From an uncultured Nitrospiraceae bacterium (lineage in GTDB: Bacteria > Nitrospirota > Thermodesulfovibrionia > Thermodesulfovibrionales > Dissulfurispiraceae), in assembly GCA_963727805.1 (NCBI GenBank), contig CAVSHF010000005.1, forward strand, positions 448,001-512,000: a stretch of DNA of 64,000 nt. Reading direction: 5' to 3'. The notes under the pieces are model-generated. The model had not been told where the DNA came from, did not search any database, and saw only the letters and a list, made by a program, of their open reading frames with translations. Positions 28,217-42,009 of this stretch are shown piece by piece. Position 1 is the first letter of the stretch. Every line of letters begins with the position of its first letter. The translations under genes and the position numbers were made by a program.

Positions 28217-28257
28217 GGTTCCAGTGTTCTAGGCTCCAACTATGAGCAGCAGAAATA

Positions 28258-28289
28258 CAACGGGCCGGATCTCGCGGTCCGGCCCGTTG
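28258..28289. terminator. GC-rich hairpin between convergent genes
   Basis: caacgggccggatc-tcgc-ggtccggcccgttg. Confidence 0.75.
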
Positions 28290-28310
28290 CAATAGATGCT
28301 TTGTTTAGTG

Positions 28311-29606
28311 CTATTTTCCGCCCTTTGCGATGCTTAACGTCTTTGTGACCTTCTGCCATAGCTGGGAATTGCCTTCGTCATCCTTATTGCCGTAAGGCAG
28401 ATACCATAGCTCGACCTCAACGGTGAAGGCGTTGGCGATTATCTCGCGGATTAATTTCCCTTCCTTTTTAGATTCATTATAGCCAGGGATATAGAATTTT
28501 TCAGTCACCGTCCTGAGAGGTGGGAGGCTAGTGTCGCGAAGAATTCCGCTTTTCTCATACGGACCTCTTCCCATCTTGTCACCGATACCGAACTGCTGCG
28601 GAATCGGCATGTAAATGCGCTGATCCTGGAAAAATACTTTACCTTCTTTTGTTTTCGCGGTCACATACAGGACCACCCGGTTTGGAGTAGGTCAGCCATC
28701 GGGGATCGCATGTCCTGCGTTGTTAGTAAGATCCACCCGAACCGCTGCGGCTGGTGTTGTGGTTACTACATCGCGCCACTGGTAGGCCATAGCATCAACC
28801 TTCATGTCAACAGCGCTCTGCCCCATGGCACGATAGCTCTGCATATTATGACCAAGTTTCGATTTCTTCATGTGACAATCCTGGCAGTTCTCTGTGCCAC
28901 CCTCTGGCCGATAGGCAAAATTGTAACTGCCGTACAGGGTCGCGCACTGCGTAGGATTTTCGAGTTCAAAATTCGGACCTTGACCATGACATTGGCCGCA
29001 AAGAATGGACTCCTTCATGTAAGGGCTCTTCTTCATCTTTGCAAAATCAGGAGCTGCATGCTCTCCGTCTTTGCTTCCGTATACGGCGCCCTTTTCAGGC
29101 GCACCAAACTTCCACTTATGAATGATCGCATTTCTCTGATGACAGATAAGGCAGCCGATATTTAGCTTTTGCAGATTCTGTGCAGCCTCATCCCCCGGCT
29201 CCTTAAAGGCATAGAGATTTTTCACGATCTCCTGTGCGACGCTGTCCTCGGCCTCCATCAGCTGCGGCAGATGACACTTCGCGCAAACCATCAGATGTCT
29301 GACGCCGACATCCTCCGGTTTTTTGACCCCAGATGCCGGCCAGTCCTTGAAACCGTTTTCGATAGTCGTCTTGAAAGTAGCTGCTGTCCTCCCAACTTCG
29401 GCGACCCCGAAGATTGAGCGAGCATGCAAGGATTTATCCCACTCTGCGTGAATGTCAGCATGGCAGTCCTTGCATGAACTTGAATCATACATCTTAGCAA
29501 GTTCATCGATCGTCTTGGCCTTCTTCATTTCTTCTCCCTGGGCACTTAAAACTATGCCAGGAAGCAGAATGAGAAGACCAATGATAAGCAGTCTAAAACA
29601 CTTCAT
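28311..29606 (-). CDS. Pentaheme c-type cytochrome selenoprotein (ExtKL-like), in-frame UGA at 28692-28694 read as Sec; 431 aa
   Basis: The two track ORFs are in frame and join as HAIPDG-UGA-PTPNRVVL. Signal peptide, five CxxCH, hairpin 15 nt after the UGA. Confidence 0.88.
28657..28676 (-). promoter_or_regulatory. Putative bacterial SECIS hairpin
   Basis: GUGGUC-CUGUAUGU-GACCGC stem-loop with a G-containing loop starting 21 nt after the UGA. Confidence 0.65.
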
Positions 29607-29900: not shown

Positions 29901-31706
29901 TCAGTGCAAGAATGTCCCTTTCTTGTATTTTTTCTCCAGTTTCTCATAAGTTGCATGGTCTTTGATTTCCGGAAAAGCAAAATTTCCGCCCAAAGCCCAT
30001 TTATCCCTGAATGGTTCAAGCCCTTCCGGCAGCGGTGTCGCATCAGTTTCGTTCAATAATTTCACTCTAATCCCTGTTTCATCCGCGATGACTGTATACC
30101 TTCCTTCGCCGACATCTTTATAAGAACCTTCACTGTATGGAGTCATTATCGTCTGTTTCGGAGAATCATGGCAGCTTCCACAGCTCCTCGATTTGCCGGT
30201 CGCATGGGCAACCCTATCAAAGTTGAGCCATACCATAGTGTCATGATCTTTGTTGTCGAGGTCTCTTACAAGGCCAGTGATAGCATATGCGTCGTTCGAA
30301 TAATAGAGTCTGTCTATAGTCACATCGGGGCTGTGCCTGAAGATAAGTCCCCGGGAAAGTACCACCTCAGCCGCTTTAACATTGCCGGAAGTATGCGGAA
30401 CAACATGCATAGGAACCCATATTCCTTTCGGGTTTTTTATGATAAGGGGAGATACCGCACCGACCAGATAATCCTGAATCCTGGTAAGAGGATTCTCGTT
30501 ACCCTTCGGACCTATAGCACTCCAAAAGTTGAAGGCATATCCGCCGATTAGAGTTGTATGACACGCTGCGCAATCCACTCTCTGATGAGGGCCTTTCATG
30601 TGTGCTTTGACCACAGAGGAATGGCACTTTGAGCAGTTAACGTCCCTCTGTAGATCAGCGTGAAGCCCCGATTTCCTGTTAGGCTCATGGCAGTCGACGC
30701 AAAAAATGCCTTTCTGCATATGAATATCAGGCTGATCCTTCAATATCCTGATACCTTCTTCGGTTGCCTGGGTAAATTCGGCCCTGATATATCCGTCACC
30801 TCTCCTGCGCTCCAGCGGTCCCGCGTGGCAACTGAAAGACTTTCCGCCACCGTAGCAAGAGATAGGATCCGGCCTTTTCATAAAGGTATGAGCCCCTTTT
30901 TTCGGATCTTTATCATTGTTCCTCTGTGGTGATAAATGGCAATCAAGACAGCCGACATGACATTGATTGCAACGTCTCTGATTATCATAGGCTGTCTTTT
31001 CGGACAGAGGCATCGTAGAGTGGAGGTTATAATAGTCTGCGTTTTCCTTTGTAAAAGAGGCTTGATCGGGTTCGGCAAGCCTACCGACCCAGAGCCCGCA
31101 ACTCTGTGGCCCCGTGGGACCTGTCCATGATTTGTACTGGCTCTGCGTGTGCGCCTTCTTGCCGCCACCCATAGGGCTACGAAGGAACTTCTTCACGATA
31201 TCACTATGACACACACCGCAGGTCTTTTCCGTCACCACCGGGTTGAAGGCAAGAGTATCAGCATTCCTGTCGTGCCATATGATCAATTTATAATCGGGAT
31301 TGTTTTTGATGTTATCGCCAGATATAATTTTCGGCAGTAGTGCATCAGCCCTGTTGACTCCCCTGGGAACAAGCATCGGCCACAAGTTCAGCTCAACGGT
31401 TTTCATCATGCTTCGGCGAACCACTTCCCAGGTCCTATCCTTTATAGCTAGAACAGTCAGGAGCCCTTCATGGGCACGATCCTTATCCAGCGTCTCGGGA
31501 TTGCCGAGATGGCAGTCCGTGCATGATGCGGGCATGCGTGTCTGAGCCGCAATTTCGTGAGTGGTTACAGTTAACTGCGCGTATCCCAGAGACAGCATTT
31601 TGGGGAGATCACTATGACATTGTATACATCCCTGCGCAGCGGATGCACAATAGGGGAAGGCAAATAAAATGATGCCTACGACATAAATCAGCCTCTTGAT
31701 ATTCAT
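29901..31706 (-). CDS. Exported multiheme cytochrome c (9 CxxCH plus one CX8CH)
   Basis: Signal peptide; CIQCH, CTDCH, CGVCH, CNQCH, CLDCH, CVDCH, CSKCH, CAACH, CGSCH; CYGGGKSFSCH. Confidence 0.9.
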   Translation of the reverse strand: MNIKRLIYVVGIILFAFPYCASAAQGCIQCHSDLPKMLSLGYAQLTVTTHEIAAQTRMPASCTDCHLGNPETLDKDRAHEGLLTVLAIKDRTWEVVRRSMMKTVELNLWPMLVPRGVNRADALLPKIISGDNIKNNPDYKLIIWHDRNADTLAFNPVVTEKTCGVCHSDIVKKFLRSPMGGGKKAHTQSQYKSWTGPTGPQSCGLWVGRLAEPDQASFTKENADYYNLHSTMPLSEKTAYDNQRRCNQCHVGCLDCHLSPQRNNDKDPKKGAHTFMKRPDPISCYGGGKSFSCHAGPLERRRGDGYIRAEFTQATEEGIRILKDQPDIHMQKGIFCVDCHEPNRKSGLHADLQRDVNCSKCHSSVVKAHMKGPHQRVDCAACHTTLIGGYAFNFWSAIGPKGNENPLTRIQDYLVGAVSPLIIKNPKGIWVPMHVVPHTSGNVKAAEVVLSRGLIFRHSPDVTIDRLYYSNDAYAITGLVRDLDNKDHDTMVWLNFDRVAHATGKSRSCGSCHDSPKQTIMTPYSEGSYKDVGEGRYTVIADETGIRVKLLNETDATPLPEGLEPFRDKWALGGNFAFPEIKDHATYEKLEKKYKKGTFLH

Positions 31707-31744: not shown

Positions 31745-32074
31745 TCAGCACCCCGCAGTCTTTCTGAAAGAAAATGGGACATTCTTACCGTCTTTAATTA
31801 TATATTTTACATTAACATCGTCACCGACCTTGATTCGGGTCTCTCTGAACTTATCGATGGTCTGTTTATCCTCGATCGAGAGTTTAATATCCTTCCCCTC
31901 ATAGTCGGTAACCACGACTGTATTTGCAGCGAGATCAATGCTCTTGACCCTTCCATTCAACAGGACCTGACCGGCTGGTGCTGCCAATGCATCCGTAGCC
32001 ATCCATCCGCAAAGTACAAAGATAACGAAGGCCACTATCGATATCCGATACTCCATCACCACGTGAACTCTCAT
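31745..32074 (-). CDS. Small exported OB-fold-like protein ending in ...AGC (ExtJ-like)
   Basis: RBS ggagg, signal peptide, GRVKSID...IKVGDDVNVKY beta pattern, terminal Cys. Confidence 0.75.
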   Translation of the reverse strand: MRVHVVMEYRISIVAFVIFVLCGWMATDALAAPAGQVLLNGRVKSIDLAANTVVVTDYEGKDIKLSIEDKQTIDKFRETRIKVGDDVNVKYIIKDGKNVPFSFRKTAGC

Positions 32075-32129: not shown

Positions 32130-33704
32130 CTAGAAGAGGACGTCGAAGGTCAGGTAGACATCCTGTGCGTTTTTAAGTACGGGAAAGAACTGAGGGACCG
32201 TAGTCGGCCCAGGAGTGGAACTGAGACTGCTAATTTTCGAGGGTGCACCAACCCAGTTGTTACTGCCGCTGTATTGGAAGTCATAATACTGGTAACCGAG
32301 CCTAAAGAACGCCTTCCCTCTCTTTGAGATGGGTTTCTTGTTCAGCTCCTGGATTACATATGCTTCAAGTACGCTTCCTCTGGTACCAAGCTTGCTCGTC
32401 CACATGTCATCGGATGCGGGAGTAAAGGTTATCCAGTATTCGGACCCGTAGTTGTATTCGAGTCCGAGTTTCGTTCCGGTAGATTTGATATCATACCGTA
32501 CACCAGTATAGGCACCGTACCCTGTGCGGCTCTTTTTTCCGGTACTGGAATCCCACATCAGCCCATATTGAGGGAGCATTCCCCCGCCCAAAGCCTGATC
32601 GTTCGGGTCCGTATGGCTTGCGGCGGCTGAAAGGAAGAGATTTAAGTCGCCGGGGCCGAGATTGTCGATCTTGCCCGTAACAAGACCTCCGTATTGTGTG
32701 ATATTACCAAGATTGGTATTCGGAAAAGATACAGGGCCTAAAAAGGTTTGAAAAGTTGAACTCATGGATTCAGGAAATGCGAAGATGTCGAACCCGCGGC
32801 TCACTTGCAATTCCACATGTAAATTGTCGGTGTCATATGGGACAACATTGAAGCCGAGGAAATTAACGTCTTTCATGGAATTGGACGATGTCCTGAACCC
32901 GCTGTCGAAGCCCTTACCATAGCAGAGTTTTGCATAAGCACCCGGAAGCACCGAAATATCTGGAGCGACGCCTATCGTGGCCCCGTCAAAAGCATAGTCT
33001 ATCAGCAGTCCCGGTACCCCCGCAGTCCCGATCTTTTCGGTATTCTGTCTGTAATTTGTCGGCACGCCGCCCGTTGAAGGTCTTCTGCCTACCGAGAACC
33101 ATATCGGCTGACTCAATATGTTGCTCCACGTAGCATAAGCGGAGTCGACGCGCAAGGCATTATCTGATGGAGTATGAGTAACATTTCCGTCAAAGACCGA
33201 TTGCTTATCAGCAAAGAAGGCATTATTCCCTGTGACAGGCTCGGAAGTCTCTTCCCCCCAGACCTTGTACATAAGCAATCTCGCTTTGACCTGAATATCT
33301 TCTGTTGCCTTTGCCTTTACATTTAAACCAAGGCGGTTCGTAAGTAAAGATTCGTTCTTGTAAGTCTGTGCATTGGAGGGTCCGTCGAAAGTAAATGCAT
33401 CGTGGGTTTTGCCGGTCAGATAATCATACCTTCCGCGGTAGTCTCCCCCGATCTCAAGCCATGATGGCCCGGCCGCCTCTTCAGCCTTCTTTTCGACCAC
33501 AGCGATCCTGTCATCCTTGACCGCATCTTTTTTCTGGATTTCCTGCATCTGCTGCTTAAGATTATCGAGTTCCTTCGAGAGCATATCGATTTTCTTAAGC
33601 AGATCGTCCTGGTCAACCGCTTGGGCCATGCCCGGCATACTGCACATAAAAAGTACAGTAACCAGCATAAGCCTTACAGCTAATCCGAAGCCAGTTTTTT
33701 TCAT
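32130..33704 (-). CDS. DUF3373-type outer-membrane beta-barrel (putative porin)
   Basis: Signal peptide, N-terminal coiled coil, GGDYRGRYD, GRRPSTGG, GSEYWITFT, C-terminal Phe. Confidence 0.8.
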   Translation of the reverse strand: MKKTGFGLAVRLMLVTVLFMCSMPGMAQAVDQDDLLKKIDMLSKELDNLKQQMQEIQKKDAVKDDRIAVVEKKAEEAAGPSWLEIGGDYRGRYDYLTGKTHDAFTFDGPSNAQTYKNESLLTNRLGLNVKAKATEDIQVKARLLMYKVWGEETSEPVTGNNAFFADKQSVFDGNVTHTPSDNALRVDSAYATWSNILSQPIWFSVGRRPSTGGVPTNYRQNTEKIGTAGVPGLLIDYAFDGATIGVAPDISVLPGAYAKLCYGKGFDSGFRTSSNSMKDVNFLGFNVVPYDTDNLHVELQVSRGFDIFAFPESMSSTFQTFLGPVSFPNTNLGNITQYGGLVTGKIDNLGPGDLNLFLSAAASHTDPNDQALGGGMLPQYGLMWDSSTGKKSRTGYGAYTGVRYDIKSTGTKLGLEYNYGSEYWITFTPASDDMWTSKLGTRGSVLEAYVIQELNKKPISKRGKAFFRLGYQYYDFQYSGSNNWVGAPSKISSLSSTPGPTTVPQFFPVLKNAQDVYLTFDVLF

Positions 33705-33763
33705 TGCCACCTCCTGATTTGTATTCTCCTGCCAAAGGCAGGTCCTCTTTTAAGAGAAGAGAT

Positions 33764-36604: not shown

Positions 36605-37231
36605 ATGCATAGATACAATTCTTCAGGTATGCTAATGATTAGGCTCTTCCATATATTATATTTTCTGGTGATAGTTCTCTTTTGGGTCGCGTCCGAATCG
36701 GCCCGGGCATCTGACTGTCTCGAATGCCACAAGGATCTAACAGAGGGCAAGGTAGTGCATGCGGCCGTTCAGATGGGTTGCGAAAGCTGCCACACAGGGG
36801 TTGACGCATCCGCGATTCCGCATAAGTTCATCGGCAACAAAGGGCTCAAGGCACAACCTCCAACTCTTTGTTATGAATGCCATTCCAAGGATACTTTTAC
36901 AAAAAAAATTCAGCACGTCCCAGTTTCAAAAGGTATGTGCCTGAGCTGCCATGTCCCGCATTCGGGGCCGAACGACGCACTGCTTTTGAAGGATACATAC
37001 CAGCTTTGTATACAATGTCATGAGAATGTCGACAAAAAGCCCCACGCGGTGTTCGGTACCCCTCCGCGAAGTCACGTGCTCAGGGGCCATCAAGATCCCA
37101 ATCGGGAAGGGAAGCGTTTTGATTGCTTAAGTTGTCATTTGCCTCACTCCTCTGCCTGGGGGAAATTATTCCGATATGAAGCACAGAACACAGCAGGGCT
37201 CTGCAAGAATTGTCATGATTTTATGCAGTAA
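36605..37231 (+). CDS. Heptaheme cytochrome c
   Basis: Signal peptide and seven CxxCH. Confidence 0.9.
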   Translation: MHRYNSSGMLMIRLFHILYFLVIVLFWVASESARASDCLECHKDLTEGKVVHAAVQMGCESCHTGVDASAIPHKFIGNKGLKAQPPTLCYECHSKDTFTKKIQHVPVSKGMCLSCHVPHSGPNDALLLKDTYQLCIQCHENVDKKPHAVFGTPPRSHVLRGHQDPNREGKRFDCLSCHLPHSSAWGKLFRYEAQNTAGLCKNCHDFMQ

Positions 37232-40771: not shown

Positions 40772-41083
40772 TTACTTCTCCTTTGATTCAAGCATGAACT
40801 TGTACAAAGCCTGGCACCTATCTAATCTTCGCAGATAAACTCTTCTCTGTATTTCGTCTTGTTTTTGGATAATTGGCTTTAACCTGTCACACCTATCAAT
40901 CAACTGCGTTAGCTGATCCTTTGTTAAGTCCATCGCGTCATCAGTCTGTGAGCAGACCGCCTCAAATTCCCTTTGCCACGCATCCACTGCATACACAAGT
41001 CCCGGTTCTGAGAATGTCGCAGCAAAAAAAGTAGCCAAAGAGATGATACAGAATATAAAACCTATCACCCCTGATGCTTTCAT
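40772..41083 (-). CDS. Small exported helical protein, last gene of the cytochrome cluster
   Basis: Signal peptide; ATGA overlap with the upstream cytochrome; three Cys in the mature part. Confidence 0.75.
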   Translation of the reverse strand: MKASGVIGFIFCIISLATFFAATFSEPGLVYAVDAWQREFEAVCSQTDDAMDLTKDQLTQLIDRCDRLKPIIQKQDEIQRRVYLRRLDRCQALYKFMLESKEK

Positions 41084-42009
41084 TTGTCTGTTCCATGGTT
41101 GTGACCGAGGTTTTGCTTAACAGGTTGCCGTTCATTCTCACTGGATTCCGGTTGCTGAAGCGGTTCCCGTTGTTCGGGCTGATGCTCAGACTGTTCATCG
41201 ACCAACTTTGTATGGCATCTCTGACAATCAAGCAATGGAAAAGCGACTTTCCCATGGCATACACCGCAATACTTTCCTTCAAAGATCTCCGGCATGGAGT
41301 ATTTGGTTAGCCCTTTTTTCACCCCTGAGAATATTTCAGGATGACACAATTCACAACCGTTCCAAACAATATGTTTCTTATGAGAAAAGATGATCTGAGG
41401 CATCCCCTCAACTTTGGGCTCCAGAGAAAAATCTTTCTGAATTTTAAGCGATGGCCTCTTCACAGATATTCCCGGTAGAAATCCAATCGGATTGATCAAA
41501 CCTCTTTCTTCTGCCTTTTCCCAATCTATGCCGTTGCCAAACCGTTCCTTCGGCAATTTTTCAGTAAACTTACTAAAATCGTATTCTTTTTTCACCTCTT
41601 TGCCCAAGGAATGGCATCTCTCACATCTATTCAAATCCTTATGTCCATACTCCTTTGAACATGCTTCAAAGACCTTTCTGTCCTGCCATTGCATCTTACC
41701 ATTGTGACATGTACCGCAATAGTATCCTTTACTGTTGTCTGCCGCCCTAATGCCTGTCGCTCCGGCCTTCATCGCAAATGCGATATCTACGTGGCAAAGC
41801 CTACAAGTGAAATTAGATCTATGAAGCCAGTGGTCAAATACAACTGGAGCCAAATAAGCTTTTTCCGAGTAATTATTAATCACAACCCTTCCATATTCGA
41901 ACGGTAAGGGTCTTTTTTTCTTTACCCCGGTTTGAGCTAGCGTCAAGCCCGCAAAGGCAAGAACTAAAATCAGTATCACAAATACTCTCTTCATATGTTT
42001 CCTCCCCAT
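41080..42009 (-). CDS. Hexaheme cytochrome with two c7-type triheme modules
   Basis: VVFDHWLH, FSHKKH, six CxxCH. Confidence 0.9.
   Translation of the reverse strand: MGRKHMKRVFVILILVLAFAGLTLAQTGVKKKRPLPFEYGRVVINNYSEKAYLAPVVFDHWLHRSNFTCRLCHVDIAFAMKAGATGIRAADNSKGYYCGTCHNGKMQWQDRKVFEACSKEYGHKDLNRCERCHSLGKEVKKEYDFSKFTEKLPKERFGNGIDWEKAEERGLINPIGFLPGISVKRPSLKIQKDFSLEPKVEGMPQIIFSHKKHIVWNGCELCHPEIFSGVKKGLTKYSMPEIFEGKYCGVCHGKVAFPLLDCQRCHTKLVDEQSEHQPEQREPLQQPESSENERQPVKQNLGHNHGTDK

Follow-up and report, generated by a model that had tools for sequence, protein, structure and literature searches.

The two open reading frames at 28311..29606 of the window, the 64,000-nucleotide stretch of Nitrospirota DNA that was analysed, very likely encode a single enzyme that belongs to MccSep/ExtKL, a family characterised before. 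The in-frame UGA that separates them, at residue 305, is almost certainly read as selenocysteine (Sec), to judge from the comparison of homologous genes. By analogy with the orthologue from Geobacter sulfurreducens, polysulfide reduction is the probable main role of the read-through product (a probability of approximately 0.85 is given to this reading as a whole). A sequence-only reading of the same DNA had proposed one 431-aa Sec/heme enzyme that is split by gene callers. This proposal is supported by the occurrence of TGA or Cys at the same column in homologues, by the Sec machinery of the genome and by membership of the ExtKL family. The features are listed in Table 1.

Table 1. Features of the mccsep/extKL locus and its neighbourhood (positions in the window)
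Feature	Position	Strand	Basis
mccsep/extKL gene, 431 aa, Sec at residue 305, predicted five-heme periplasmic cytochrome c selenoprotein	28311..29606	-	NF040886, 9wt8/9wt9
In-frame UGA, likely selenocysteine U305 (= MccSep U325)	28692..28694	-	alignment and 66 loci
SECIS-like hairpin with apical UGUAU loop on a 7-bp stem that has a bulged U	28657..28676	-	folding, conservation, covariation
Five CxxCH heme motifs (C45, C108, C152, C203, C241)	28872..29474	-	sequence
R73 (= MccSep R83)	29390-29388	-	alignment
C221 (= MccSep C239, heme 2 distal Cys)	28946-28944	-	alignment
K352 (= MccSep K372), in C-terminal domain	28553-28551	-	alignment
C-terminal beta-sandwich (Ig-like) domain 3′ of Sec, mis-called as separate 121-aa ORF	28311..28691	-	alignment, all-beta prediction
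Predicted signal peptide, approximately residues 1-22	29541..29606	-	hydropathy only
Shine–Dalgarno region of the true start codon	29607..29618	-	duplex energy
Stem-loop of 14 bp resembling a terminator, 3′ of the true stop	28256..28291	-	terminator scan; weak alone
Nine-CxxCH cytochrome, 601 aa, with weak similarity to ExtN; Cys form within a family that also has Sec-type members	29901..31706	-	profile search, homologues
109-aa protein, N-terminal hydrophobic stretch, no family match	31745..32074	-	profile search
DUF3373 protein, 526 aa, putative outer-membrane porin	32130..33710	-	PF11853, 464 bits

When TGA is translated as U, the minus strand from 29606 to 28311 holds a single frame of 431 codons with exactly one internal TGA. 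The two listed pieces, 29606-28692 (304 aa) and 28676-28311 (121 aa, with a GTG start), both lie on this strand, and the peptide at their junction is ...HAIPDG-U-PTPNR-VVL. The claim that they share one frame, interrupted by a single TGA followed by five sense codons, is thereby borne out, as is the claim that the downstream piece has no ribosome-binding site of its own. Indeed, the internal GTG is without a Shine–Dalgarno sequence (duplex energy of only -1.1 kcal/mol); the upstream ATG has a strong match (-11.6 kcal/mol). The N-terminus of the 431-aa protein is basic and contains its sole strongly hydrophobic stretch (15-aa Kyte–Doolittle value of 3.1 at residue 6, with values of at most 1.2 beyond residue 30). 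Cleavage of the predicted signal peptide would take place after LSA, and no lipobox was seen in it. A promoter scan upstream of the start found nothing. The terminator scan, which returned two sites where 1.9 are expected by chance, found no terminator-like stem-loop at the UGA.

Comparative evidence comes from the codon at the Sec column. Among relatives, 28 of 41 genomes have a match to mccsep, and throughout the phylum 88 of 251 genomes have one above the cut-off of NCBIfam model NF040886. Scanning of 83 fetched loci gave 79 with a match, from which six distant matches (22-24% identity, no C221 equivalent), one locus ending before the junction and six duplicates were excluded, leaving 66 distinct loci, own gene included. 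The Sec column of these loci, which are the best-scoring ones and therefore tilted towards close relatives, holds TGA in 61 cases, TGC (Cys) in four and TGG (Trp) in one, and never TAA or TAG. The sequence-only reading had expected Cys or Sec at this column, as is found in 65 of the 66 loci. It had also named Trp as a refuting sign, and this sign is present once, in L057 (30% identity), but as a divergent outlier this locus does not count against the gene. L057 (G023:C106) is a five-heme ExtKL-like gene that keeps C239 and is without equivalents of R83 and K372. It resembles a U-LW[ST] subgroup (L052, L054, L055 and L056) in which Sec is kept and R83 and K372 are missing; the substrate of the subgroup may differ.

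Conservation continues across the UGA. The closest named loci are from Dissulfurispiraceae/Nitrospiraceae MAGs with 86-88% identity, and the closest relatives are 85% identical in the part after the UGA. In general, identity 3′ of the UGA is similar to that 5′ of it, usually slightly lower: L034 has 103/121 identical residues after the UGA vs. 237/277 before it, and L004 58/119 vs. 163/274. In the five codons between TGA and GTG, all five amino acids are kept in six of eight relatives checked, while the synonymous sites vary freely.

Some other family members were encountered in these searches. In the phylum search, a distant ExtKL-like protein occurs in 44 of 44 genomes of family f25 and in 20 of 21 of family f27 (G095 and G201 are examples); the listed matches score approximately 100-111 bits, below the cut-off, and have no internal stop. 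Two MccSep-family genes are present in some relatives (L099/G218, L095/G011 and G014), adjacent and on the same strand in G218 and approximately 5.5 kb apart in G011. Separate from its full gene, G003 contains a stray short fragment across the Sec junction (G003:C2:2088705-2088848; residues 294-341, 81% identity). The idea that carriers of the Cys type would be without selA proved uninformative, as selA is found in 43 of 47 genomes, including the Cys-type carriers G027, G037 and G039.

Downstream of the UGA, the stem-loop GUGGUC/GACCGC that had been noticed 15 nt after it is confirmed at 28676-28657. In full, the hairpin is GUGGUC-C-UGUAU-G-U-GACCGC, its loop beginning 22 nt past the UGA. According to the Fig. 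2 legend of PMC13188914, the bacterial SECIS model has a loop of 3-9 nt, a stem of 4-16 bp, a G in loop position 1 or 2, a spacing of 16-37 nt and a minimum free energy of at most -7.5 kcal/mol. The hairpin fits this model in every respect, with a 5-nt loop, 7 bp, G at loop position 2, a spacing of 22 nt and an energy of -7.7 kcal/mol bare or -9.3 kcal/mol with flanks, which answers the proposal to check it against a SECIS predictor. Its energy is not above chance, with z values of -0.6 to -1.3 in five windows and 22-45 of 200 shuffles folding equally well. It is conservation, and not energy, that makes the hairpin more than chance. With our own implementation of the model, an energy of -7.5 kcal/mol is attained by 33 of the 61 TGA loci and one of -4 kcal/mol by 57, and the loop lies at 22-23 nt in 47. 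Of the loci with Cys, one of four attains -7.5 kcal/mol, as does the one with Trp, both at a different spacing. The loop starts with UG in 60 of 61 TGA loci vs. two of the five others. Synonymous identity points to the same element: among 139 codons scored (median 0.32), the top three are codons 311, 313 and 316 (0.96, 0.93 and 0.92), all within the hairpin, and the synonymous sites of codons 306-310 are free to vary. Moreover, 86.9% of the cells are paired in 50 distinct segments, with 17 double-sided changes. None of 500 shuffles is as high and slid registers are lower, controls that are inflated because the structure was derived from the own sequence and the rows are related. The outermost pair is broken in 28 of the 50 segments. 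A genome-wide hairpin filter was passed by 10 of 1032 long-frame TGA stops and by two of 80 TGA codons with a long open frame downstream, namely mccsep and one formate dehydrogenase-like gene; the filter is only suggestive, as the spacing window was chosen after the hairpin had been seen and as one or more other UGA genes of the formate dehydrogenase-like kind in the same set were missed.

The genome, which is 100% complete by markers, has the Sec machinery that the sequence-only reading had said should be looked for: selA (608 bits), selB (354 bits) and two selD genes (361 and 332 bits) are all above cut-off, and a tRNA-Sec is present. Both selD genes contain an in-frame TGA in a U-A-A-K motif (G000:C3:481460-485383, L028; G000:C5:156006-159920, L029), and three molybdopterin enzymes have one TGA each. 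The same genome carries dsrA and aprA above cut-off. A further frame pair around a TGA, of 229+118 codons, occurs in seven identical copies in contigs C3 and C5 and is probably an insertion sequence.

If the UGA were a true stop, it would separate two genes (ExtK and ExtL) or mark a nonsense pseudogene. This is what databases suggest, as gene callers split the gene, 118 of the best 120 protein database matches span only 62-71% of the query and six of eight fetched database homologues stop at the residue preceding the UGA; in addition, a GTG start lies five codons downstream. Such a stop is nevertheless very improbable, being already contradicted by comparative data. TAA and TAG are never found at the column and TGA alternates with Cys, the codons between the two ORFs are under protein-level selection, the GTG is without a ribosome-binding site, and the orthologue consists of one chain of 49 kDa, in which 0.96 Se per subunit was measured and the Sec peptide was confirmed by MS (PMC13510729). 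Besides, two full-length database homologues (P0077 and P0096) have Cys at the Sec column. Hardly credible is that UGA is reassigned genome-wide to Trp or Gly, or is read as Cys or Trp without selenium: TGA terminates 1032 frames of at least 200 codons in this genome, of which only 80 have at least 100 open codons after it, the sole UCA-anticodon tRNA is called as tRNA-Sec, and the U325C variant of the Geobacter protein is inactive (PMC13510729), which together outweigh the one divergent locus with TGG (L057).

The read-through protein scores 566.6 bits (curated cut-off of 250 bits) against NF040886, the model for the multiheme c-type cytochrome (seleno)protein ExtKL, and the match covers positions 12-422 of the 423 in the profile. 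No other copy in the genome is above this cut-off. It also matches PDB entries 9wt8 and 9wt9, i.e., Geobacter MccSep, with approximately 525 bits over residues 28-431. Opposite U305, these entries have X (wild type) or A (U325A mutant). The tie to Geobacter ExtKL, which the sequence-only reading had drawn, is thus exact. By sequence equivalence only, R73, H112, C221, U305 and K352 correspond to R83, H122, C239, U325 and K372 of MccSep, H122 being the proximal ligand of heme 2, and each of the five CxxCH motifs is kept in 62 of 62 full-length homologues. A structure model of the 431-aa protein from a 45-sequence alignment (pLDDT 81, pTM 0.76) has a helical heme region up to approximately residue 250 and strands in 266-425, with an all-beta C-terminal domain. 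The fold search ranks PDB 5ze8 first (E 1e-12, TM 0.52 over 446 columns). This is the pentaheme cytochrome c552 from Thermochromatium tepidum, a single chain that spans both halves, and the identity is 19%. Along with c552, the small pentaheme cytochromes of cable bacteria (PMC11976967) count among the closest known systems. The list of fold matches does not contain 9wt8, presumably owing to a fold library that stops in April 2026.

MccSep is the product of extKL (GSU2937-2936) in G. sulfurreducens, for which the earlier prediction is described in PMC5877670. Mihara et al. (2026; PMC13510729) have since proven its Sec, solved its structure (PDB 9wt8, 9wt9, 9wta, 9wtb and 9wtc), shown its polysulfide reductase activity and catalogued its Nitrospirota homologues. 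The protein forms a homotetramer in the periplasm, and each subunit carries five hemes and one Sec, the latter confirmed by MS. It reduces polysulfide and, less well, selenite, and does not reduce thiosulfate, sulfite or nitrite. Activity is lost in C239H, U325A and U325C. In the mechanism proposed there, the substrate is attacked by Sec, a bridge to the heme-ligating Cys is formed, and heme electrons cleave this bridge (PMC13510729). TsdA, SoxAX and the molybdenum polysulfide reductase PsrABC resemble MccSep in sulfur-sulfur bond chemistry, with a His/Cys heme in TsdA and SoxA (PMC13510729); they are without the Sec-heme site and are not known to be homologous. The same study lists 637 homologues, with Nitrospirota (Thermodesulfovibrionia) as a main carrier. 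Its Data S1 has 29 Dissulfurispiraceae hits; the eight of these rows that were read are all Sec-type, clade 1 and periplasmic, and some of the eight have the same hairpin core. An exact search there for the own UGA plus 30 nt returned no row, and the allele described here may be absent from the catalogue.

With Geobacter MccSep, the protein shares the five CxxCH motifs, the His/Cys ligands of heme 2 (H112/C221), the equivalents of R83 and K372, Sec in an H-x-I-P-D-G-U-P-T-P-N-R loop, the C-terminal beta domain and a SECIS-like hairpin 3′ of the UGA; a comparable N-terminal export signal is predicted. It is shorter (431 vs. 450 aa) and has Ala at the position of C240, which is dispensable in MccSep. 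G. sulfurreducens is unable to use sulfate or sulfite, but the present host, a Nitrospirota relative, carries dsrA and aprA. Unlike Geobacter extKL, the gene lies outside any extHIJKLMNOPQS cluster.

The Geobacter mechanism is transferred to this protein because every tested residue is kept. Following general bacterial Sec decoding, SelB with Sec-tRNA would bind the hairpin loop 22 nt past the UGA, translation would then continue into the Ig-like domain, and the product would be exported and receive its five hemes. As in the Geobacter orthologue, the selenol of Sec305 would attack the S-S bond of polysulfide (or selenite) near R73, the adduct would be handed to the heme-2 ligand C221, and electrons from the heme chain would cleave it, upon which sulfide leaves. 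In a Nitrospirota relative that bears dsrA and aprA, the enzyme would be used to respire S0/polysulfide, or else for the reductive half of sulfur disproportionation.

The transfer of function is weakened by several points. Polysulfide and selenite activity, the tetramer and one Se per subunit have been demonstrated in G. sulfurreducens only (PMC13510729), the genome has no ExtN above cut-off, the gene is not in an ext cluster, and two PhsA/PsrA-like molybdoenzymes of the genome (537 and 444 bits, under the cut-off of 694) could do the same polysulfide job. The main job of the same selenoprotein might then be selenite reduction, periplasmic polysulfide clearance or an oxidative direction in disproportionation, instead of respiratory S0 reduction. 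That MccSep also reduces selenite, that the host has dsrA, aprA and PhsA/PsrA-like enzymes, that the gene context is unlike that of Geobacter, and that MccSep has been noted to be akin to TsdA and SoxAX, His/Cys enzymes that work oxidatively (Discussion of PMC13510729), are all in line with this. Such a role is still considered quite unlikely, since all tested catalytic residues match those of the polysulfide reductase, polysulfide is preferred over selenite (K0.5 of 0.19 vs. 0.99 mM), and mccsep deletion cripples S0 respiration in Geobacter (PMC13510729).

The nine-heme gene ends 294 AT-rich bases upstream of the mccsep start, on the same strand, and downstream of mccsep lies a convergent cardiolipin synthase-like gene. 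The 526-aa DUF3373 protein further upstream is presumably an outer-membrane porin. This agrees with a listing in PMC4827864. The nine-heme protein scores 36 bits against ExtN (cut-off of 200), and the extHIJ/extM/extN/extOPQS arrangement around extKL is not present at the locus; three Geomonas/Citrifermentans loci do have an ext arrangement. The order DUF3373, 109-aa protein, nine-heme cytochrome and mccsep is found in three of 23 distinct neighbourhoods (G002, G004 and G007), and DUF3373 alone is adjacent to mccsep in two more. A family-wide conserved operon was rejected on this count. As the three are all close relatives, the module is specific to a lineage, and its order may have been inherited. 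Frameshifts seem to be present in G004 (L091/L001), in its DUF3373 gene and its response-regulator gene upstream of the module. Elsewhere in the window, at 36605-37231 (+) and 41080-42009 (-), there are two more multiheme cytochromes (doubled-CXXCH, c7-type), unlinked to mccsep.

The nine-heme cytochrome has a 641-aa paralogue in the genome (G000:C3:716434-718359, minus strand; L122:8435-10360) with a TGA in GPQN-U-GPSFAD, opposite a conserved Cys, and a hairpin loop approximately 26 nt after it. From these features, the paralogue is likely a second selenocysteine multiheme cytochrome of this genome. In 121 genomes of the class, four of 56 family matches have one TGA, in the same column and with a hairpin; the same TGA and hairpin are found in G199, G098 and G150. 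In a motif set of 39 loci, three of which were added because they bear the TGA, the other 36 read Cys. No NCBIfam model matches the paralogue above cut-off, and no row with the motif GP[QH]x[U/C]G was noticed in the part consulted of Table 1 of PMC13188914, a 2026 table of prokaryotic selenoproteins. Main text of the Dissulfuribacter proteomics paper makes no mention of ExtK or seleno-. Any functional link between the nine-heme cytochrome and MccSep is putative. Carried further, the DUF3373 porin, the small exported protein and the nine-heme cytochrome, a partner from a second Sec/Cys cytochrome family with the above motif, would form a non-Geobacter module with MccSep as its end point in the genus. 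This module would supply the electron donor and the sulfur entry of MccSep, and would make up the reductive branch of elemental-sulfur disproportionation in a dsr-bearing Nitrospirota. This proposal is tentative and, in its entirety, rather improbable.

Although the feature is real, it has been described before: PMC13510729 reports the family with its Sec, its structure, its mechanism and its occurrence in Nitrospirota, and the finding therefore adds one more member. The only addition is the genomic context. In close relatives, the gene follows those of a putative DUF3373 porin and of a nine-heme cytochrome, in place of the Geobacter ext cluster. Standard gene callers mis-split the gene, so that annotations lose the catalytic residue and the C-terminal domain; the corrected annotation marks the organism as a likely S0/polysulfide reducer. 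The electron donor and sulfur entry route of MccSep are given as unknown in PMC13510729, and the abstracts of PMC8780430 and PMC13490349 describe the first steps of sulfur disproportionation as unresolved. The finding would gain weight if the porin and the nine-heme cytochrome were the missing sulfur conduit and electron donor, and likewise if MccSep were the reductive step of sulfur disproportionation.
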